Shown here: piece after piece, positions 2,607 through 60,811 of the stretch
How the letters are laid out: every line of letters begins with the position of its first letter
Position numbering within the stretch: the stretch's first letter is position 1
Origin: an uncultured bacterium
Lineage (GTDB): Bacteria > UBP15 > UBA6099 > JAJRTR01
Length of the DNA: 64,000 nt
Reading direction: 5' to 3'
NCBI GenBank assembly: GCA_964595945.1
Contig: CAZQSL010000001.1
Span: 36,930 to 100,929 of the forward strand
Position numbers and translations under genes: made by a program
The notes under the pieces: generated by a model
Seen by the model: only the letters and a program-made list of their open reading frames with translations
Told to the model about the DNA's origin: nothing
The model's database searches: none

Positions 2607-4007
2607 TTGGAACCGATGAAGCTCTCACAGATCATCGAAGCAACCCGCGGCACTCTCACAAGAGGCAGCGCCGACGGCATCGTCATCTCCGGCATCCAGA
2701 CCGACAGCCGGCTCGACTGCTCCGGCTCGCTGTTTGTCCCACTTGCGGGGGAGACTTTCGATGGGCACGACTTCATCACACCCATTGCTGCCAAAGGCGC
2801 ACTGGGTTGCGTCGCATCCAGAGATTTCGACACTTCCGCGCTACCCGCAGAATTTTTCGTCATCCGCGTCGCTGATACCCTCGCGGCCCTTCAGGACATC
2901 TCTGGGGCTTACCGCCAGCAGTTCGACTCCGCTGTCATCGCCGTCACGGGCAGTTGCGGCAAAACGACTACCAAAAACATGCTTCGCACGATGTTTTCGG
3001 TCGCGGGAGACACCGTAGCGACTGCCAAAAACGAAAACAACGAAATCGGCGTACCATACACGCTGCTGCGGATCGCCTCCAGCACAAAATACACTGTCGT
3101 GGAAATGGGTATGCGCGCTCTCGGCGAAATCTCACGTCTCGCTCAAATCGCCGCTCCGACTCACGCCGTGATCACCAACGTCGAAAAAACACACATCGGC
3201 CGCCTCGGCTCAGAGGAAAACATCGCCAGGGCCAAGGGCGAACTGATCGAATCTCTCGATTCCTCCGGCACCGCGTTTCTCAATGCCGACAATATATGGA
3301 CATCCGAATTGCGCCGCCGCACCGCCGCCACTGTCATAACTTTCGGCATCGAACAAGGCGACGTGCGCTCGGAAAATGTCAAATTTTCTCTCGACGGCAT
3401 TTCGTTCGATCTGCTGCATCCCTCCGGCCGGATGAGCGTCACCCTGCCGCTGCCGGGCAAGGCGGCTGTATACAACGCGCTTTCCGCTGCCGCCGCGGGC
3501 CTTTCGCTCGGACTTTCTCCCGAAACGATCACCACCGGCCTCGCTGCTCCGATCGGCGAAAGCGGCCGCCTCGTCAAACATGTCTGTGACAACGGTACCG
3601 TCATACTCGACGATACTTACAACTCAAATCCGGCTTCGCTCAGCCTCGCGCTCGAACTCCTCGGCGGCGTAGCCTGGCATGGCCGCAAGGTCGCCGTACT
3701 CGGCGATATGCTCGAACTCGGTGACTTCAGCGAGAGCGAGCATTTCAGAGTCGGCGCTGAATTCGCTGCCGCCAACACCGATCTGCTCGTCACGATGGGC
3801 ACCGAAGCCGCCCACATAGCCGCCGGCGCACGCGGGGCGGCCCCAGCGATGCCGGTCATCTCTTTCGACACTTACGAACTGCTCGCCGATGCTGCGTCCT
3901 CGATTTTCAAATCCGGCGATCTCATTCTTGTCAAAGGTTCGCGCGGCATGAAGATGGAACGAATCGTGAATCTCATCAGCGGCAATCTTACGGGAGGGCG
4001 ATTATGA
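2607..4007 (+). CDS. murF: UDP-N-acetylmuramoyl-tripeptide--D-alanyl-D-alanine ligase
   Basis: Mur ligase P-loop GSCGKTTTK. Position between murE and mraY fits. The start is a TTG at 2607 or an ATG at 2616. Confidence 0.9.
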   Translation: MEPMKLSQIIEATRGTLTRGSADGIVISGIQTDSRLDCSGSLFVPLAGETFDGHDFITPIAAKGALGCVASRDFDTSALPAEFFVIRVADTLAALQDISGAYRQQFDSAVIAVTGSCGKTTTKNMLRTMFSVAGDTVATAKNENNEIGVPYTLLRIASSTKYTVVEMGMRALGEISRLAQIAAPTHAVITNVEKTHIGRLGSEENIARAKGELIESLDSSGTAFLNADNIWTSELRRRTAATVITFGIEQGDVRSENVKFSLDGISFDLLHPSGRMSVTLPLPGKAAVYNALSAAAAGLSLGLSPETITTGLAAPIGESGRLVKHVCDNGTVILDDTYNSNPASLSLALELLGGVAWHGRKVAVLGDMLELGDFSESEHFRVGAEFAAANTDLLVTMGTEAAHIAAGARGAAPAMPVISFDTYELLADAASSIFKSGDLILVKGSRGMKMERIVNLISGNLTGGRL

Positions 4008-4996
4008 GTCTGTTCGGCGATCCGGCGCTCGGCAAAGCCCTCTTGGCGGCAGGCATTTCATTTGCCTCCGGCATGGTGATCATGAAAGCGCTTATCGCGC
4101 TGCTCAACAAGGCCGGCATGCGGCAGATCATCCGCAAGGACGGTCCGCAGGCACATCTGAAAAAGGCGAAGACGCCGACTATGGGCGGTCTCGGTTTTTT
4201 CATCGCCTCCGTGATCGGCATCGCCGCTACCGGCGCGTTTGCGCACTCTACGACACGGCTTGTGATCATTACGGGATTTATTTGCCTGCTGATCGGTTTC
4301 GCTGATGATTTTGCCAAGTTCACGGGCAAGAGCACCGAAGGAGTCAAAGCCCGCTACAAGATTGTGATCGAACTCGCAGTAGCGATACTGCTCGCATATT
4401 TCATGGTCTGGCAAAGTACGCCAGACAAGCCTTACGACCTGATCTGGATGCCGTTCGGACTGAAGGGTATTCATCTTGGCCCGCTGTTTTACCCGTTTGT
4501 GATCGTGGTTTTCATGGGATCGCTAAACGGGGTCAATTTTACCGACGGTGTGGACGGGCTGCTGGGTGGCTGCTTCGTCGCCGTGTCGGCGGCATTCGCG
4601 GCGTTTATCGCGATGTATTCCGACCGCGCTCTGCTTGTGCCGCTAGCCGCAATATGCGGGGCTGTCGGCGCTTTTCTGTGGTACAACTCGCATCCCGCGA
4701 AGGTCTTTATGGGCGACACGGGATCGCTTTTCCTCGGCGGAGTGCTCGCGGCCATTGCAGTCGTTACGCGCACCGAGCTGTTTCTTTTTGTCGCCGGGCT
4801 TGTCTTCGTCGCCGAAGTGCTTTCGGTGATGATACAGGTGACATCGTACAAACTGACGAAAAAACGTGTTTTCCGCATGGCTCCGATACATCATCATTTC
4901 GAGCTTGGCGGCTGGAGCGAGACACAGGTATCAATACGATTTTGGATTGTCTCATGGGCCCTCGGACTCGTGGCTCTGCTGATTTTCGTAGTGTAA
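4004..4996 (+). CDS. mraY: Phospho-N-acetylmuramoyl-pentapeptide transferase
   Basis: Polytopic membrane protein whose ATGA start overlaps the murF stop. It carries the conserved MraY C-terminal motif (PIHHHFEL) and sits in the canonical dcw position. Confidence 0.92.
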   Translation: MSLFGDPALGKALLAAGISFASGMVIMKALIALLNKAGMRQIIRKDGPQAHLKKAKTPTMGGLGFFIASVIGIAATGAFAHSTTRLVIITGFICLLIGFADDFAKFTGKSTEGVKARYKIVIELAVAILLAYFMVWQSTPDKPYDLIWMPFGLKGIHLGPLFYPFVIVVFMGSLNGVNFTDGVDGLLGGCFVAVSAAFAAFIAMYSDRALLVPLAAICGAVGAFLWYNSHPAKVFMGDTGSLFLGGVLAAIAVVTRTELFLFVAGLVFVAEVLSVMIQVTSYKLTKKRVFRMAPIHHHFELGGWSETQVSIRFWIVSWALGLVALLIFVV

Positions 4997-6410: not shown

Positions 6411-7659
6411 CAGACGCTCCGGCCAGCAACCGCCATCGCCGCCGGCGAAGCAGAGTGCTGCTTTCGCCAATTTCGGCACGCCCGATTATACGTTTCTGAT
6501 GATCGTGATACTCCTGACCTGCGTGGGTCTTGTCATGGTCTTCAGTTCGAGTGGCGTCTTTTCGCTCAATACCCAGTCGGACGCACTGTATTATCTCAAG
6601 CAGGAAGCCAAGTGGGTAGCGATGAGCCTTTTTGCGATGGGCTTTATGATGGTGTTCAGCTACAAGCGTTTCAGGAAGCTGGCCCTGTGGGGGCTTGGCC
6701 TTGCGGTGGCGATGCTGGCGGCAGTGCTTGTGCTGCCGGAGAGTCTCGCGCCCACCGTCAACGGCTCCAACCGCTGGCTGCAGATACCTGGGCTGAGGAT
6801 ACATGTCGGCGAATTCGCCAAGTTGACGATGATTGTGTTTTTCGCCGTTTTTCTTTCAAGCAAACAAAGGGATATCAGGCAGTTGCCCAATCTGTTGACG
6901 ATAGTGGGCATCTATGGCGGCATCGGGGTTTTGCTGCTGATGGAGCCTGATTTCGGGATGACGTTTGTGATCGGTCTCATCCTGGTGGCGATGCTGTGCA
7001 TTGCCGGAGTCAACAGCGGTCTGCTACTTGGCGGCATCGCTGCCGGCGTTGTAGGCGGATGGTTTATCGCCATAGCCGAGCCTTACAGATATAAAAGGCT
7101 CATGGCCTTCCGCGATCCGTTCGCCGATGCGGATGGAGTGGGCTATCAGGTCGCCCAGTCGCTGATCGCGATTGGCAACGGAGGATGGTTCGGCCGCGGA
7201 CTGGGGAAAAGTCTCCAGAAGCTGATGTTTCTGCCTGAGCAACATACGGATTTCATATTCTCGATCATAGCCGAAGAACTCGGCATCCTCGGGGTCATGC
7301 TTGTCGTCGGGCTGTTCATAGCCCTTACGGTACAGGGGTTCAAGATCGCGATGAAATGCGAAGACCCGCTGGGTAAATACCTTGTGTTCGGGATTACGTT
7401 CATGATCTCGGCACAGGCGCTTTTCAACATGGGAGTAGCCACGGCTATGCTGCCGGTCAAGGGGCTGACACTGCCGTTCGTCAGCTTCGGCGGTGCGTCG
7501 CTTCTTCTGACTTACGCGGCTGTCGGCATAGTGCTCAATGTGTCGGCCAACTCAAACAGGGAACGGATGAAAAAGAATGAAATGTCTCCTTCTGGCGGTG
7601 GGGGGAACGGGCGGTCACATATTCCCGGCAATAGCCCTCGGCCGTCACGTAATGGATAA
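6373..7659 (+). CDS. ftsW: SEDS family peptidoglycan glycosyltransferase FtsW
   Basis: Ten-TM SEDS protein between murD and murG. The track ORF begins at 6259, inside murD. I prefer the in-frame TTG at 6373, which gives a basic cytoplasmic N-terminus before TM1. An ATG at 6499 is an alternative. The 3' end overlaps murG by 83 nt. Confidence 0.83.
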   Translation: MKQKSQKPGQPVDRRSGQQPPSPPAKQSAAFANFGTPDYTFLMIVILLTCVGLVMVFSSSGVFSLNTQSDALYYLKQEAKWVAMSLFAMGFMMVFSYKRFRKLALWGLGLAVAMLAAVLVLPESLAPTVNGSNRWLQIPGLRIHVGEFAKLTMIVFFAVFLSSKQRDIRQLPNLLTIVGIYGGIGVLLLMEPDFGMTFVIGLILVAMLCIAGVNSGLLLGGIAAGVVGGWFIAIAEPYRYKRLMAFRDPFADADGVGYQVAQSLIAIGNGGWFGRGLGKSLQKLMFLPEQHTDFIFSIIAEELGILGVMLVVGLFIALTVQGFKIAMKCEDPLGKYLVFGITFMISAQALFNMGVATAMLPVKGLTLPFVSFGGASLLLTYAAVGIVLNVSANSNRERMKKNEMSPSGGGGNGRSHIPGNSPRPSRNG

Positions 7660-19552: not shown

Positions 19553-19752
19553 AATATACTGAATATCAATAGAAATTCCCCATCCATTGTCATTGAAGTC
19601 TCCCGGGAAAAAACCTTGCTATAGTGAAAACATGTTTGTATTATCCGTATTAATCCGTGTCAGAAAGTCTTTATTGTTTTCCGATGCTACGCAAGATCAT
19701 CTCGACAGACCATAACCATACACAGGGGAATTCGATTGATATTTCGTATAAT
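19553..19752 (+). repeat. Composite dispersed repeat, copy 1 (28-nt block 19553-19580, 100-nt block 19652-19752)
   Basis: The 28-nt block aatatactgaatatcaatagaaattccc and the 100-nt block ending in tataat recur at 27531-27557 and 27652-27753 with about 85-90% identity. The spacers between blocks are unrelated. Confidence 0.7.
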
Positions 19753-27194: not shown

Positions 27195-27470
27195 TTGTCC
27201 GCCACGCAACTGCCCCTGAAAATGTCCGTACTCCGCGAAACCACCACCGCGGCGCTCTCCCCCGCGCAGATCGTCGAAAGGCTCGCCCCCTCGTACGGCG
27301 GCGAAAAACAGCTCAACCTTTCGACTGTCGAGTCGCATCTCATGGCCCTCCGCGCAGTGGGACTCGTCGAGGCGGACAATCCGCGGATCATCGACGGCTC
27401 TCTTGTCCTCAGCTTCGCCGCTACCGATGCCGGTCGCGCTAAATTCGCTCAGTATGGAAATAATTCCTAA
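27195..27470 (+). CDS. Small hypothetical protein, possible winged-helix DNA-binding protein
   Basis: A TTG at 27195 lies 9 nt after a GAGGAGG RBS. The segment STVESHLMALRAVGLVE resembles an ArsR/MarR-type recognition helix. Confidence 0.35.
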   Translation: MSATQLPLKMSVLRETTTAALSPAQIVERLAPSYGGEKQLNLSTVESHLMALRAVGLVEADNPRIIDGSLVLSFAATDAGRAKFAQYGNNS

Positions 27471-27753
27471 CCGTTCACGGAATACTCGCGGAGGACCTTT
27501 TGTGCAGAAAAGGTCCTCCGCACCTCTCATATATACTGAATATCAACAGAAATTCCCTACCACAATTTATCGAAGCGACCCGATAGAGCAGCCTTGTATC
27601 AGGCGGGGATAACCCCAGCCCCTTCGAAAAACAGTCATGAGCTATCCGTGAAATCCGTGTCAAAAAGTTTTTTATTGTTTTCGGATGGTACACCAGATCA
27701 TCCCGGCAGACCATAACCATACGTTGGGAAATTCGATTGATATTTCATATAAT
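27468..27753 (+). repeat. Composite dispersed repeat, copy 2 (flank 27468-27491, palindromic hairpin 27490-27519, 28-nt block 27531-27557, 100-nt block 27652-27753)
   Basis: Shares the 28-nt and 100-nt blocks with copy 1. Its 5' flank plus hairpin recur inverted at 40223-40278. Its 28-nt block recurs inverted at 48262-48290. Confidence 0.7.
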
Positions 27754-39453: not shown

Positions 39454-40062
39454 GCGGGCGCTTCCTTCTTTTGGATACTTTGTGAAACATCCTTGTTGAT
39501 AATATTTCTGGCTTTCGCCATCCGAAATAGTACAATTCTTCGCTGCTTGCGGCGAATATGAACGTGTGCATCTTATGATACCCCGCAAGCGGCGTGGAAT
39601 TAGACCCGAAGAGAATGAATGACCCCGGAGCAAATTCTCTCCGATCAAACTATCCTTGTATGGTAAGCCCAATGCTGTTTACTTAAGCTGTCATTCCGGG
39701 ACGATGCCCCGGATTCTATGAGACATGAAGTCAGGAGGGGCTTTCGAATACAGATGTTATTATCTTAAGTAAACAGCATAGAGGCTAAGCCAGTGAAAAC
39801 TGAATTGCATCAGTTGGTAATTATAGCTTATGATGGCGGTATGGTATGATTCGCATTAGAGCCTGTCCACGAACTGTCGAGTTGCCGAATGACAATGTAT
39901 TTTCTATAACAATGCGGCATCATAATCGCTAACCATGAGGTATTATTGTAACATCGTCACAATCGTTTACGAGTTTTTAGCCAGGCTCATAAATGCTTGT
40001 CATTCTGAGCGAAGCGAAGAATCTTGCTTGCCTTTTCTTAACATTATCGGCAAGCGTTCACG

Positions 40063-40094
40063 ACAAGAGCATGGAGACCCCCTTTTTGAAAAAA
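40063..40094. repeat. GGAG...CTCC palindromic hairpin family member
   Basis: ggagaccccctttttgaaaaaatggggtctcc. Perfect long palindrome with a T-run/A-run interior. Confidence 0.6.
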
Positions 40095-40150
40095 TGGGGT
40101 CTCCAAACCTCTACCGAAAAACTTTATATGATATACTCCAGCCATTTTTT

Positions 40151-40188
40151 GCGGGTTACAAGCGGCATATCAGCCGCTTGTAACCCGC
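40151..40188. repeat. Perfect 16-bp-stem hairpin flanked by a T run (5') and an A run (3')
   Basis: gcgggttacaagcggc-atatca-gccgcttgtaacccgc. Looks like a bidirectional terminator between convergent genes. Confidence 0.55.
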
Positions 40189-40222
40189 AAAACCAGAGAA
40201 TCCTCCAAACATAGGGAGTTTT

Positions 40223-40278
40223 TTGGAGAGGTGCGGAGAACCTTTTTTGCAAAAAAGGTTCTCCGCGAGTATTCCGTG
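40223..40278. repeat. GGAG...CTCC palindromic hairpin plus inverted copy of the repeat-copy-2 flank
   Basis: gcggagaaccttttttgcaaaaaaggttctccgc, then cgagtattccgtgaacggttaac. This is the reverse complement of 27468-27519. Confidence 0.65.
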
Positions 40279-40478
40279 AACGGTTAACATTATCGCGCGT
40301 GCGGGGCTGAGGCGCGTTCCATCAGCCATTTGGTTATGACATACGCTTTTTCCAGCGCTACAGCTTCACTTGAAATCCCGCATCACCCCTATTCTAAAAT
40401 TTTTTCGGAGAGCAGGGGGCTCCGCCCCCTGCACCCCCACAAAGGATAAAAGATTAAAAGCAAAAAGGCTAAAAAAGA

Positions 40479-43040
40479 TTAGTCCTGAGCACAACGAAAG
40501 CCGCGATTGAGGGACCAGTTAGAAGGAACGTACCTGAAGCGAACGGAGACGCGCGAGTACCAGACGTAGTCGATGCCGTCCCAGGAGCCGCCGCGCAAAA
40601 CCCGGAGGTCGTAGTCGCCTATAGTTGGGCCTGTCGGGTCGGTCGACGGGCTCGATGAATAATAGTCGCTCCCATACCAGTCGTTCACCCATTCCCACAC
40701 ATTCCCGCCCATATCCATCACTCCATAATAGCTCTTGTCACTCGAATAACTCCCCACTGCCGCCGTATCGTTTGTTTCACCAGTTACACATGAATGATAT
40801 GTGCTATTTATATCGTGGTAGCCCCTGACATTGCCATAGCATCCGGGCGTACTTCCCCACGGATAGATGTTTGTACTCGGACTCGGCCCCCGCGCCGCCT
40901 TTTCCCACTGCGCTTCCGTAGGCAACTTGCCCCCATACCACGCGCAGAAAAGCGCCGCCTGCGTCCATGTCACATTTATCACGGGATAGTTCGCATACGC
41001 CGAGTTACCGTAATATGACGCCCGTGTGGATGACGATGTGCTACCCGGCGCGGTGCATGAGCCAGCCGCGACGCACGCCTCATATTGCGCGTTCGTCACT
41101 TCGTGTTTCATGATCTTGTATTCAGAAAGATTTACCGTGTGCCTCGGCTGTTGGTCGCTCAAGCAAAAGGAATACCACTTTTTTATTGGGTTACCGTATC
41201 CGTCGTCTGTGTCGTAATAATACCCATCGCCGCTGGCCGCTGATGTGTCCGAGCACCCCATGAGGAAATTCCCCGCGGGGATCGTGATCCACTCGTCCGT
41301 CGGCGTGCCGCTCACCTCGTTGCTTGCCGTGCATTTATCACTGGTATCGCAGGCGTAGACCTTGAAGTAGTATTTCGTGTCCTTCGTCAGCCCCGTGACA
41401 GTCTGTGTGGTATGTGTTTTCGATGTGATGGTGTTGACAGGAGTTGACGACAGAGTGACGCCGGGTGAGGTGGAGCGATAGACTTTGTAGTAGGCGAAAT
41501 TGGTTTTCGAGCTTTGCGACCATGAGAGATCGAGAGATGTGGCCGTGATGTTGAACGGTACGTTCAGGGGCAGCCCGTTTTCGACCGTGATTGATTCGGA
41601 TGTCAATTCGGTAGTGGCGCCATCCTTGTCGGTGACGGTGACTTTTGCGGTGTATGTGCCTGCCGTTTCGTAGGTGTGCGAGGGATTTTTTTCCGTGGAC
41701 GTGCCGCCGTCGCCGAATTTCCACGAATAGGACACGCACGTGATGTCGTCGTCGCTGCAATCAATTTTGAAGCTGACGTCGAGTGGCGATTCGCCGCTTG
41801 CGGGTGATGCTTCCATGGTGGGGGCATGTGCGATTTTTCTTTCGGTAATTGTGAATGCTCCCGTATCCCAGCTCTCAAGCTCATGATCGAAAATTTCTAT
41901 TTGAAATTTTGCCCCGGCTTCAAGGCCGGCGGCAAGTTCCCACAGAGGTTTGACCGTCACTCCTTCGGACAATTGAACGGATTCGCCAGCCAGCATCCTG
42001 AGGTACCCGTTTATGTAGGCTGAGGGCCCGGCAACATTGTACAGCAGCAGTTCGAGTTCGAGGCCGCAATATGCCTTGACCTCTGCCGTGAGAGTTACCT
42101 TTGGAGCATCGTACGAAATGACATTGGTGAATTCCTTGACGGTTGACCATTTCTTGTCGGCATAGCGCATGCCCGCAGTGACCTTAGCGGATTGGACGAT
42201 CTCGGCGGTGAGCGTAGTGGTGATCTTGCCCTGAAGACCAACGTAGACTGTCAGCTTGGGGACGAATACGAGCGGTATGCCGGCATTTACCACAAACGGT
42301 TTGAATTTGAATTTATATATCGGGATTTCCTCTTTAAAACCGGCCAACGGCAGTTTTGAATCCAGTTTGATGTCGAGTTCTTCTTTTGCCGAAGTGGTAA
42401 ACAACAGGCTTTCGAGTTTGAAGCTCTTGATCCGCGCTTTGAAATTCACCGAAGGAGTGAGTGTCACAGAACCCGTGATAGTGGTCTGGTCGTCAAGAGT
42501 GTTTTTGTTGTTGTCCTCGTCATACAGCACATTTTTCAGTTCAATGGAAAAGGATTTCAGATCAAGGTTCGCGGACCGTTTCAGCGAAACGCCTTTCTGA
42601 AGAGCCTCCTCCGAGCTAACATCGTCGAGGGTCAATTCACGGGACACCTCGATGTCGGCCTGCTCAATAGCGTCAGCAAGCGCGGCATTTTCCACGGTGA
42701 CAACGGTGGAGCCGCTGTTGGATGTTTTGGCAACAACCTTCTTCAGCAAGCCGTATGGCGCAGCATCCGTTGGCGCGGAGGCGATGATATCGCCGATGGC
42801 AAGCGCCTGAAGTTGCGGGGTATCGGTGGCGAAAGTGATGGTGTCGGTGGCGACTTCGGTTATGCCAGCGCGAGTTTCGCCATCTAACACACGGGTTTTT
42901 TCACTGAGTACTGTGGGCACGCTCGAATCAGAGGTGCTGCCGCCCCCTCCCCCGCAGCCGCCTGCTGCTATGACGAGGATGGCAAGGATTGCGATGCTGG
43001 TGATGTGTTTCAGATGGTTTGTGCGGTGTGTGTTTTTCAT
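40479..43040 (-). CDS. Large lipoprotein with PKD, fibronectin-III-like and C-terminal FGE-sulfatase (SUMF1-like) domains
   Basis: The ATG at 43040 has a GGAGGA RBS. Lipobox at IAAGGC followed by a Gly/Ser linker. PKD-like motif WKFGDGGTSTEKNPSHTYETAGTYTAKVTVTD. FN3-like segment with FAYYKVYRS. The final ~300 aa carry FGE-sulfatase signatures (RGGSW...GFRCA). The track ORF starts 39 codons upstream. Confidence 0.8.
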   Translation of the reverse strand: MKNTHRTNHLKHITSIAILAILVIAAGGCGGGGGSTSDSSVPTVLSEKTRVLDGETRAGITEVATDTITFATDTPQLQALAIGDIIASAPTDAAPYGLLKKVVAKTSNSGSTVVTVENAALADAIEQADIEVSRELTLDDVSSEEALQKGVSLKRSANLDLKSFSIELKNVLYDEDNNKNTLDDQTTITGSVTLTPSVNFKARIKSFKLESLLFTTSAKEELDIKLDSKLPLAGFKEEIPIYKFKFKPFVVNAGIPLVFVPKLTVYVGLQGKITTTLTAEIVQSAKVTAGMRYADKKWSTVKEFTNVISYDAPKVTLTAEVKAYCGLELELLLYNVAGPSAYINGYLRMLAGESVQLSEGVTVKPLWELAAGLEAGAKFQIEIFDHELESWDTGAFTITERKIAHAPTMEASPASGESPLDVSFKIDCSDDDITCVSYSWKFGDGGTSTEKNPSHTYETAGTYTAKVTVTDKDGATTELTSESITVENGLPLNVPFNITATSLDLSWSQSSKTNFAYYKVYRSTSPGVTLSSTPVNTITSKTHTTQTVTGLTKDTKYYFKVYACDTSDKCTASNEVSGTPTDEWITIPAGNFLMGCSDTSAASGDGYYYDTDDGYGNPIKKWYSFCLSDQQPRHTVNLSEYKIMKHEVTNAQYEACVAAGSCTAPGSTSSSTRASYYGNSAYANYPVINVTWTQAALFCAWYGGKLPTEAQWEKAARGPSPSTNIYPWGSTPGCYGNVRGYHDINSTYHSCVTGETNDTAAVGSYSSDKSYYGVMDMGGNVWEWVNDWYGSDYYSSSPSTDPTGPTIGDYDLRVLRGGSWDGIDYVWYSRVSVRFRYVPSNWSLNRGFRCAQD

Positions 43041-43640
43041 GTGTGTCCTCCGGCCGGGTGATTGTGGCTGCTGGTGGCTCTGTTTTGCGTTTTCGCGAAG
43101 CGGAATTTTCATGCAGTTACAATTGTTGAAGTGTGTCTTTTTGCGATTATATATCATTGCACGCTGTATGGGAAGGGAAATATTGAATATCCCGAGAACA
43201 TCAAGAAGTCAAACCTAAAATCATCTGAAGAATAATTTGTAACAAAATCACTCGGTACAATTAGTCATGCAACTCGATGATAGCTAATGGAAGCGGTAGT
43301 ATTTCCGCATATATGGCGATCTATCCGACACTCGTTGCCGTAATCCGAAAGAGTAGTTGTCAATAATTTGTGGTCTTGTATGTTACATATAAAAAGATGC
43401 TATATGTTACGTCAAATGTAGCAGATCGGGCTATACCGGATTGTATGTCATTGGAGTAATCTTAAGTGGTAAGTTGAGATGTCAGCGTTATGGCAGACAT
43501 CATGTGAGCATAAGTCCACATTGTTGCCCAATGTCTCACAAGTCGGGCAGGATACGGCAGATCGTTGCCGGATGTCATGGTTACAACCGGCATCCTAATG
43601 CCGGGAACAAATTCGAAGTCATTTTTGGCCATTCAAATAA

Positions 43641-48154: not shown

Positions 48155-48188
48155 CGGAGAAACCTTATTCGAGAAAAAGGTTTCTCCG
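48155..48188. repeat. GGAG...CTCC palindromic hairpin family member
   Basis: cggagaaaccttattcgagaaaaaggtttctccg between convergent genes. It is followed at 48262-48290 by an inverted copy of the 28-nt repeat block. Confidence 0.6.
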
Positions 48189-48421
48189 CACCTCTTCCCA
48201 AAAGCTTTATATGATTAACTTTTCTCCAAGTTACCGTTTCATTGTGCTACCCACAGCGGTAGGTAATTTCTATTGATATTCAGTATATTCCAATATTAGG
48301 AGGAACATCAATGAAAACGCAGGGAACCAGGCATCCATATCGGATGATCCTTTGTTCATAAAGGAGGCGTTCAGACGGCAGGATTAGGGATTTGCACAAA
48401 GTCTGAATTGGTGGAGCAATA

Positions 48422-52880: not shown

Positions 52881-53030
52881 TGACTCAGCACTCCTTCATG
52901 ATACTTCATCAGTTGTACTAACTGCGTGAGGCTTGATTTACAGCCATTATACCACGGGGCAACTGTCGAAAAAGGGCGGCAAAATGAAATCGCCGCCCTT
53001 TGGGGAAAGCGTATCAGAGAGCCGGAAAGA

Positions 53031-60746: not shown

Positions 60747-60786
60747 CCGGTGTGCCGCCTCAGGCGGAAAGATCAGAATAGCAAAA

Positions 60787-60811
60787 GGCGGGGAGTGATC
60801 CCCGCCTTTTT
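60787..60811. terminator. Bidirectional terminator between the transaldolase-like gene and hydA
   Basis: ggcgggga-gtga-tccccgcc, with an A run on the 5' side and a T run on the 3' side. Confidence 0.55.

Follow-up and report, generated by a model that had tools for sequence, protein, structure and literature searches.

The stretch of DNA analysed here (the window) comprises 64,000 nucleotides of contig CAZQSL010000001.1 (assembly GCA_964595945.1, positions 36,930 to 100,929 of the forward strand) from an uncultured bacterium of the UBP15 lineage, and represents core chromosome of a diderm anaerobe, with the dcw cluster, FtsK, BamA, LpxD and an Fe-only hydrogenase. Its intergenic regions contain four GGAG…CTCC hairpins of 30–34 nt, E1 to E4, which are genuine copies of a dispersed non-coding repeat family. 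Each hairpin is accompanied, on one side, by a short box that mirrors one arm of its stem, and the family is probably best explained as a structure-selected, dispersed intergenic repeat whose hairpin and mirror box have the pattern of an intrastrand triplex, and not as a terminator. The four copies occupy three long gaps between convergent genes, and convergent gaps amount to ∼5% of the window. E1 lies between a 91-aa open reading frame (ORF) on the plus strand and glyQ on the minus strand, E2 and E3 share the gap between a dockerin-domain gene and a PKD/fn3/FGE-sulfatase gene, and E4 is found between a PPDK-like gene and a 424-aa ORF. The original prediction, in which the hairpins had been noticed from the sequence alone, placed them at gene ends between convergent genes, with E1 set apart as lying between same-strand genes; convergent placement holds for 4/4 copies, E1 included. 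The E1 hairpin starts 17 nt past the stop codon of the 91-aa ORF, and three window copies are separated by 214–680 nt from the closest stop codon upstream of them. The 91-aa ORF is a called gene and an orphan, having no homologue but itself among 5.8 billion proteins and no Pfam match.

All four predicted hairpins were located in the window sequence (Table 1). Their earlier coordinates were accurate for E1 and E4 and were each 10 nt too low for E2 (40063–40094) and E3 (40223–40256), and E2, previously taken as a perfect palindrome, contains one C.T mismatch (…CCCCCTTTTT / AAAAATGGGG…). In a census of hairpins whose stems reach 10 bp or more with no more than one mismatch, E1–E4 account for four of the 12 found in the window. 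An oriented, one-sided flank (CTCC-NN-ACCTCT), absent from the earlier description, is common to all four. The combined pattern GGAG-N2-4-CCTT-N14-19-CTCC-RM-ACCTCT has four matches in the window versus none in 100 dinucleotide shuffles, and no further window copies were found at up to three mismatches. Similarity between copies extends beyond the hairpins, with E1 and E3 matching over 61 nt (Table 1) and the 3′ flanks of E2 and E4 being alike as far as TTATATGAT at 48215. A Logan contig from SRR15237810, which is an independent short-read assembly of the source organism (our L082, position 3447 of which corresponds to 27501 of the window), stops exactly at the tip of the E1 5′ arm (…GCGGAGGACCTTTT), an indication that these palindromes fragment short-read assemblies.

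The two arms of each stem covary. With stem pairs numbered inward from the stem base, the variable positions of E1–E4 pair at 92% when arms of the same copy are compared and at 62% when arms of different copies are combined. For stem positions 5–13 of 30 distinct hairpins (49 copies), 95.6% of pairs are Watson–Crick, compared with 67.6% for shuffled partner arms (maximum 77% in 2000 shuffles), and two to three pair types occur at each stem position. Own-arm versus shuffled-arm pairing thus bears out the earlier suggestion that the paired stem changes reflect selection on structure, not on sequence.

A third segment follows each hairpin. The order of a unit is hairpin, 3-nt linker and box (CCTCT-CC-AAAAA-C-TTT), the box being present on one side only. 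The 5′ arm is composed of a purine block (GGAG followed by A/G), a run of 1–3 C and a run of 4–6 T, after which come a small loop and the complementary 3′ arm. The box mirrors the 3′ arm of its own hairpin or, equivalently, is the parallel complement of the 5′ arm. Its pyrimidine block is one nucleotide shorter than the purine block, its C run is as long as that of the 5′ arm and is not complemented, its A run carries any G at the mirrored position, and it ends with C and then 3–4 T. Linkers observed were AAA, GCA and ACA. Different stems come with different boxes: we found a GAGGGGAA-C-TTTTT stem with CTCCCCT-C-AAAAA, a GAGGAA-CCC stem with CTCCT-CCC, a GGAGAAA-CC stem with CCTCTT-CC, a GGGGAGAAA-C stem with CCCCTCTT-C, a GGAGAGGA-CC stem with CCTCTCT-CC, TTTCT/AGAAA stems with AAAGA and TTCTT stems with AAGAA. 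Among the window copies, the fit to the base-triple code considered below (Table 1) is poor in E1, because its box ends after CCTCTC, where an unrelated 26-nt repeat starts. The likeness of ACCTCT to the 3′ end of 16S rRNA raised the possibility of an anti-Shine–Dalgarno mimic, which was rejected since the box varies with the stem, GGGGG stems having CCCCC boxes.

The mirror relation was tested on 56 distinct stems, with the box side set by the tail alone and the pyrimidine block alone scored. Own boxes scored 6.09 out of 7, versus 5.14 for boxes swapped between stems (standard deviation 0.10, maximum 5.48 in 2000 permutations; z 9.2), and in the 47 stems that lay outside the pattern selection the corresponding values were 6.11 and 5.22 (maximum 5.57). 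Scored as a direct repeat, own boxes reached 5.00 and swapped boxes 4.59; as a reverse complement there was nothing to separate them (2.66 versus 2.59). Hairpin sides without a tail had a mirror score of 4.04.

Watson–Crick pairing and copying give direct or inverted repeats and never mirror repeats; the code of an intrastrand triplex can account for the mirror covariation. Mirror symmetry between one strand of a duplex and an adjacent third segment is a requirement of H-DNA and of intrastrand triplexes (PMC4666352). What selection preserves would then be a fold of a single DNA strand in which the box occupies the major groove of the hairpin, and the fold would arise transiently when the DNA is unwound. 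When published pairing rules are applied, the strand that carries the box would have the order R-Y-Y*, a pyrimidine-motif class III arrangement with C+.G-C and T.A-T triples. The complementary strand would have the order R*-R-Y (class I), with the purine block forming G.G-C and A.A-T triples, and its T run could give parallel T.A-T triples over the inner A.T block, an arrangement that would require no cytosine protonation. In its most specific form, in which the three covarying segments (5′ arm, 3′ arm and mirror box) of a cross-phylum repeat family fold into an alternate-strand intramolecular triple helix, we put the proposal forward tentatively.

The family is found well beyond the window. 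The original prediction was to fail if the four copies were the sole ones and belonged to one duplicated segment; copies are in fact numerous and do not stem from a single duplication. A pattern scan of species-representative genomes gave at least 75 matches in 73 stretches, of which 30 were stemless chance matches, and at least 45 were near-perfect palindromic copies, also having the downstream ACCTCTnCCAAAAACTTT, in at least 11 metagenome-assembled genomes (MAGs). The carriers are labelled Thermodesulfobacteriota (DATEAM01), Eubacteriales (JAZQXI01, JBGVEW01 and JAZQUQ01), Clostridia (JAGARU01 and others), Lachnospiraceae and Chloroflexota. Searching by architecture only (purine block, C run, T run, loop and complementary arm) returned 118 hairpins with 78 distinct stems from 43 loci and the window. 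The DATEAM genome has 57 such hairpins in 90 kb, or 6.4 units per 10 kb, and includes a unit with a GGGGGAAAC stem. In multi-copy genomes the hairpin forms one edge of a repeat that reaches over 60–500 nt, on the box side only. Viral contigs gave three chance matches to the family pattern, without stems, and plasmids gave no matches by blastn, so that a phage or plasmid origin was rejected under the searches used. JGI metagenomes searched with the flank of the window subfamily (CGTTCACG…) yielded two chance matches only. The two nearest relatives available (GlyQ identities of 84% and 79%) are not syntenic with the window and have no unit near glyQ within 11 kb and 6.9 kb, respectively. A full-text literature search for six of the family's sequence strings returned no paper.

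E2 and E3 are the two ends of one composite palindrome, an inverted doublet with both boxes facing inward. It consists, in order, of an outer stem (CGTTCACG/CGTGAACG), the E2 hairpin, a box arm, a central hairpin, a second box arm and the E3 hairpin, and its terminal inverted repeats are imperfect. The doublet is bordered by an exact 12-bp direct repeat, possibly a target-site duplication or else a scar left by recombination; as a single case it is not decisive. Most hairpins of the DATEAM genome likewise occur in facing pairs of 150–190 nt, as inverted doublets, whose two members have different stems and belong to two subtypes (T5 run and TTTCT). Doublets occupy intergenic regions of every gene orientation at the DATEAM loci. 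The 1085-nt gap that holds the E2–E3 doublet also contains a perfect 16-nt inverted repeat, its arms ∼76 nt apart, which may be another small palindromic element. The minus-strand gene on the E3 side encodes an 892-aa PKD/fn3 protein with a C-terminal FGE-sulfatase domain and is followed by a GC-rich hairpin. A diversity-generating retroelement, for which this FGE-sulfatase-domain gene resembles a target, was considered and rejected, no template repeat being present in the window.

Table 1. Repeat units, their parts and nearby features in the window (window coordinates; fit, fit to the triple code)
Feature	Position	Strand	Sequence and remarks
91-aa ORF	27195–27470	+	Called gene, orphan
E1 unit matching E3	27468–27528	+	61 nt, 93% identity, including the 5′ flank TAACCGTTCACGGAATACTCGC
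E1 hairpin	27488–27521	+	GCGGAGGACCTTTT/gtgcag/AAAAGGTCCTCCGC; RNA dG −27.2 kcal/mol, z −6.9
E1 linker and shortened box	27520–27528	+	GCA, CCTCTC; fit 7/12
E2–E3 inverted doublet	40050–40283		Both boxes inward-facing; DNA dG −74 kcal/mol, z −12.6
Direct repeat, left copy	40038–40049		Exact, 12 bp, TTAACATTATCG
Direct repeat, right copy	40284–40295		Exact, 12 bp, TTAACATTATCG
E2 hairpin	40072–40105	+	TGGAGACCCCCTTTTT/ga/AAAAATGGGGTCTCCA; one C.T mismatch
E2 linker and box	40105–40125	+	AAA, CCTCTACCGAAAAAC, TTT; fit 12/15
Central hairpin of the doublet	40147–40192		TTTTGCGGGTTACAAGCGGC/atatca/GCCGCTTGTAACCCGCAAAA; perfect, 20 bp
E3 unit	40217–40266	−	Bottom strand 5′-AGTTTTTTGGAGAGGTGCGGAGAACCTTTTTTGCAAAAAAGGTTCTCC-3′
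E3 box and linker	40217–40234	−	Minus strand reads GCA-CCTCTCCAAAAAAC-T; fit 12/14
E3 hairpin	40233–40266	−	GCGGAGAACCTTTTTTGCAAAAAAGGTTCTCCGC; perfect 34-nt palindrome
E4 hairpin	48155–48188	+	CGGAGAAACCTT/attcgagaaa/AAGGTTTCTCCG; inner T/A block degenerate; dG −17.6 kcal/mol
E4 linker and box	48188–48208	+	GCA, CCTCTTCCCAAAAGC, TTT; fit 11/14
16-nt inverted repeat	39672–39687 / 39764–39779		Perfect
PKD/fn3/FGE-sulfatase gene	40479–43157	−	892 aa
GC-rich hairpin	40410–40434		Follows the preceding gene
26-nt repeat, first copy	19555–19580	+	TATACTGAATATCAAYAGAAATTCCC; left end of module 19555–19752
26-nt repeat, second copy	27532–27557	+	Left end of module 27532–27753
26-nt repeat, third copy	48262–48287	−	
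Canonical terminator	52971–53001		A-stem-T
Canonical terminator	60783–60810		A-stem-T

E1–E4 are not intrinsic terminators. The original prediction saw their placement as consistent with bidirectional terminators, a reading that fails because the T and A runs lie inside the stem and no T-tract comes after it. Our criterion was at least five T (U) within 0–2 nt after the stem, and for bidirectional terminators also an A-tract before the stem; a scan of both strands for a hairpin with T-tract flagged none of E1–E4, and the sequence after their stems is GCACCTCT or AAACCTCT. Canonical A-stem-T terminators are found elsewhere in the window, where two of the 12 census hairpins are of this kind. Like intrinsic and bidirectional terminators, the family has a stable, G+C-clamped stem-loop (in E1–E4, stems of 12–17 bp with dG of −17.6 to −27.2 kcal/mol, both strands alike) soon past a stop codon and often between convergent genes; unlike bidirectional terminators, it has its T/A runs within the stem, which is the reverse of A-stem-T, and no U/T-tract on either strand. 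In Rfam 15 there was no match at the gathering score in the window or at the units of 12 loci, and permissive matches on the doublet were to generic hairpin models only, far below threshold. Two further candidates were rejected: a small peptide encoded on the opposite strand, as the frame differs between E1/E3 and E2, and an integron attC site or group IIC intron target, as the hairpin belongs to a repeated unit and has no extrahelical bases and no R/L boxes. For practical purposes, annotation of these units as terminators should be avoided.

Related genomes differ by gains and losses of units, which stand beside unrelated genes, and in this the units behave like REP or BoxC/PIT elements. At an orthologous site upstream of a phosphorylase gene, where the flanking genes are 83–90% identical, the JAZQXI01 MAG (L002) has box, hairpin and A-run, and the JBGVEW01 MAG (L015) is without exactly ∼63 nt. 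The junction in L015 lies in an AAAGTT(TT) direct repeat internal to the element, and the difference looks like a slippage deletion, as reported at TMECO sites; units thus mark sites of small deletions between related genomes. One explanation of this distribution is that the units are non-autonomous mobile elements of the MITE (miniature inverted-repeat transposable element) or REPIN type, moved by a transposase encoded at another locus (e.g. Y1 HUH, RAYT or IS200/IS605), with the box forming part of a recognition or cleavage site. Y1 HUH enzymes (RAYT, IS200/IS605) recognise folded single-stranded hairpin ends. Copies within a genome are near-identical (nine identical hairpins, with 200–500 nt of flank 75–90% identical), the neighbouring genes are unrelated, densities rise to that of the DATEAM genome and several phyla are involved. 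The doublet is REPIN-like in that REPINs are described, in outline, as an inverted doublet (PMC3337134), and the direct repeat around E2–E3, the one orthologous presence/absence site and the interruption of the E1 box by another repeat all point the same way. Against this, no transposase family recurs among the 133 genes that lie up to 2.5 kb from a unit, in which Pfam shows only ferredoxin domains to be recurrent, and none is among the top families of the 49 window ORFs, although a RAYT, being encoded by a single-copy gene, could escape a census of this extent. There is no GTAG or CGTC tag, no target-site duplications were seen in a 13-copy DATEAM alignment, the junction in element-internal repeats fits a slippage deletion better than an insertion, and viral contigs and plasmids lack the family under the searches used. 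The high diversity of stems within one genome is likewise unusual for recent spread. We therefore regard mobility as possible though doubtful; it is compatible with a structure-selected hairpin and mirror box, to which it would add a means of spread.

The repeat that interrupts the E1 box is a second, 26-nt interspersed repeat, with three copies in the window versus none expected. It forms the left end of a module of ∼200–220 nt in two places, the right end of which is an imperfect inverted copy of the 26-nt repeat with a sigma-70-like TTGGGA-18-TATAAT; the inner 102 nt of the two modules are 86% identical. The 26-nt repeat adjoins the box side of E1 and of E4 (two of its three copies), in one case cutting the box of E1 short. 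The module looks like a separate MITE-like element.

Outside the window, the units have a preferred orientation. This was counted with a self-trained codon model, validated on Pfam-verified genes, which parts real genes from antisense shadow ORFs. In other genomes ∼21 of the 40 evaluable pattern copies lie 9–90 nt past the stop of a co-oriented gene, and ∼6 are reversed; the box is on the far side from the co-oriented upstream gene, and such upstream genes were real and mutually unrelated in 10 of the 10 cases checked. The 3′ neighbour is convergent as often as it is co-directional, and the orientation bias therefore tracks the adjacent gene end, not the replication strand. The exception is L015, in which two units (4411–4438 and 6562–6589) are located upstream of the opposite-strand genes glgA and dnaN, at ∼65–100 nt from the gene starts; the units there have a conserved body of 400–500 nt, and the real genes (phosphorylase, glgA and dnaN) are on the other strand according to Pfam.

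Such a bias is what one might expect if the units act in transcripts, as 3′-untranslated-region stem-loops that terminate transcription in an unusual manner or shield the mRNA 3′ end from 3′-to-5′ exonucleases, with the box taking part in an RNA structure, possibly a pyrimidine-motif RNA triplex that reaches a short U run. The distal position of the box, the start of E1 shortly beyond a stop codon, the stable predicted RNA folds of the window copies and the C plus 3–4 T that follow the box in most units would all suit this explanation. For REPs, a role as RNA elements downstream of ORFs has been suggested (PMC3733652), and pyrimidine-type intrastrand triplexes are possible in RNA (PMC4666352). 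The stems, however, are without a direct U-tract and the terminator scan was blank for all four window copies, and PIT elements have no promoter or terminator activity (PMC4666352). The sense strand has no excess of G.U-type mismatches, as G.T mismatches are even between the strands (9 versus 10, beside 19 transversion-type mismatches), and the loop, TGAA in 62 units, is flipped to TTCA in 15 (∼20%). The L015 units upstream of other-strand gene starts, the doublets in gaps of all orientations and the distance of three of the four window copies from a stop codon are also difficult to reconcile with a transcript role, and a C-rich third strand in RNA would require protonation. On balance we consider this explanation unlikely. 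REP/BIME elements are reported to bind gyrase and IHF, and the perfect palindromes, the invariant GGAG/CTCC clamp of the window copies and the convergent gaps could suggest that a dimeric protein binds the duplex, be it at an operator or as a nucleoid protein or, as at REP/BIME, gyrase, and that the sites serve as topological or transcriptional insulators between convergent genes, but this is very improbable, because stems vary within a genome while palindromy stays, which argues that structure rather than sequence is recognised, and because a one-sided mirror box covarying with the stem is left unexplained.

A structure-selected hairpin with mirror box thus remains the explanation that we prefer, and several observations bear on the level at which selection acts. 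Stems are perfect in 80 of 118 hairpins, G.T mismatches are symmetric and loops are flipped, and purine-motif triplexes do not form in RNA (PMC4666352); together these favour a constraint at the DNA level, short of proof. Other points weigh against the triplex. Compensated stem changes without a matching change in the box are seen in E1, in L033 and in L002 (at 4390), and palindromy is therefore kept more strictly than the match between stem and box. Because copies within a genome share descent, independence is overstated by the permutation tests. The box and the 5′ arm have the same C run, which, like the one-nucleotide offset, breaks the triple code. A strand-switch linker, at which the third strand changes sides, would accommodate both, but as an explanation it is ad hoc. 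Just four copies are known in the source organism, all from the 64-kb window. A triplex on the mRNA-sense strand would depend on the protonation of several neighbouring cytosines, an unfavourable requirement at neutral pH, and the orientation bias relative to the upstream gene could point to a transcript role instead. Even for TMECO, a triplex was observed solely with isolated single strands in vitro, and none was detected in vivo (PMC4666352).

Natural base-triple codes kept by covariation are rare, and the case for BoxC/TMECO rests on one near-invariant consensus. The family described here offers dozens of distinct stems, each with its own third segment, and so brings to a triple helix the kind of comparative evidence used for RNA helices. 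Should an alternate-strand triplex be formed, the family would be a second and more elaborate class of natural triplex-motif repeat beside BoxC/TMECO, and one that escapes existing triplex finders, its first ‘loop’ being a helix. The 3′-end bias would in that case suggest a strand-specific role, for example one in which folding of the non-template strand blocks convergent read-through. If the fold is confirmed, the role of triplexes in bacterial chromosomes would become directly testable in hosts with hundreds of copies.

The family resembles both REP/REPIN and BoxC/PIT/TMECO elements, yet misses a defining feature of each. The original prediction also read the hairpins as REP-like, which is right as regards architecture, namely a palindrome with a one-sided tag, an inverted doublet, gene-end placement and many copies elsewhere, and not as regards the GTAG/CGTC tag. 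As in REP, BIME and REPIN elements (PMC3733652, PMC3116915), the units are multi-copy, intergenic palindromes of 20–40 bp (here 30–34) with a one-sided conserved element, lie near the 3′ end of an upstream ORF, mainly in convergent or co-directional gaps, and maintain their stems by compensatory changes. Inverted dimers 20–100+ bp apart form a larger hairpin in those elements, as do E2–E3 and the facing pairs of DATEAM here. Unlike REPs, the family has no GTAG or CGTC tag, by which REPs are defined (PMC3733652), and its flank is N3 followed by CCTCT…, varying with the stem; its one-sided element is a box of 15–20 nt that changes together with the stem; and its stems are essentially perfect, enclose runs of T and A, and differ between the hairpins of one doublet.

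The BoxC/PIT/TMECO elements of Escherichia coli and other Proteobacteria (Hoyne et al. 2000; Holder et al. 2015, PMC4666352) have in common with the family a purine block, a pyrimidine partner and a mirror copy that could act as third strand. Also shared are a second loop of 3 nt, inverted pairs that mix two subtypes, a dispersed intergenic distribution beside unrelated neighbours and small deletions by which related genomes differ. Neither is linked to a transposase, phage or plasmid, and in both, if one strand is of a purine-motif class, the other is of a pyrimidine-motif class. BoxC/TMECO-like motifs are themselves present in L002, from a gut member of the Eubacteriales, at ∼3900–3960 (CCTCTCCC-ttt-GGGAGAGG…GGGGAGAGGG) and ∼4040–4090 (CCTCCCCC-aga-GGGGAGAGG), in a repeat of ∼640 nt that is also found in L003. 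In contrast to TMECO, the family bears no similarity to CCCTCNCCC-N3-6-GGGNGAGGG-N3-GGGNGAGGG, and its block order is that of class I/III, whereas TMECO is of class II/IV. Its first ‘loop’ is a hairpin extension of 16–20 nt (C run, T run, loop, A run and G run), compared with a limit of 1–6 nt in ITxF, and its third segment runs on as a C run followed by an A run, the latter a mirror of the inner A.T block; this extension would imply an arrangement of the alternate-strand type. Its hosts are MAGs of anaerobes (labelled Clostridia, Thermodesulfobacteriota and Chloroflexota) together with the diderm anaerobe of the window, and its units favour the 3′ ends of co-oriented genes, in contrast to TMECO, which has no strand bias and is commoner upstream of ORFs. 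The family is therefore best described as a variant among structural repeats of the REP and BoxC kind, unusual in a three-way covariation that fits a triplex fold.

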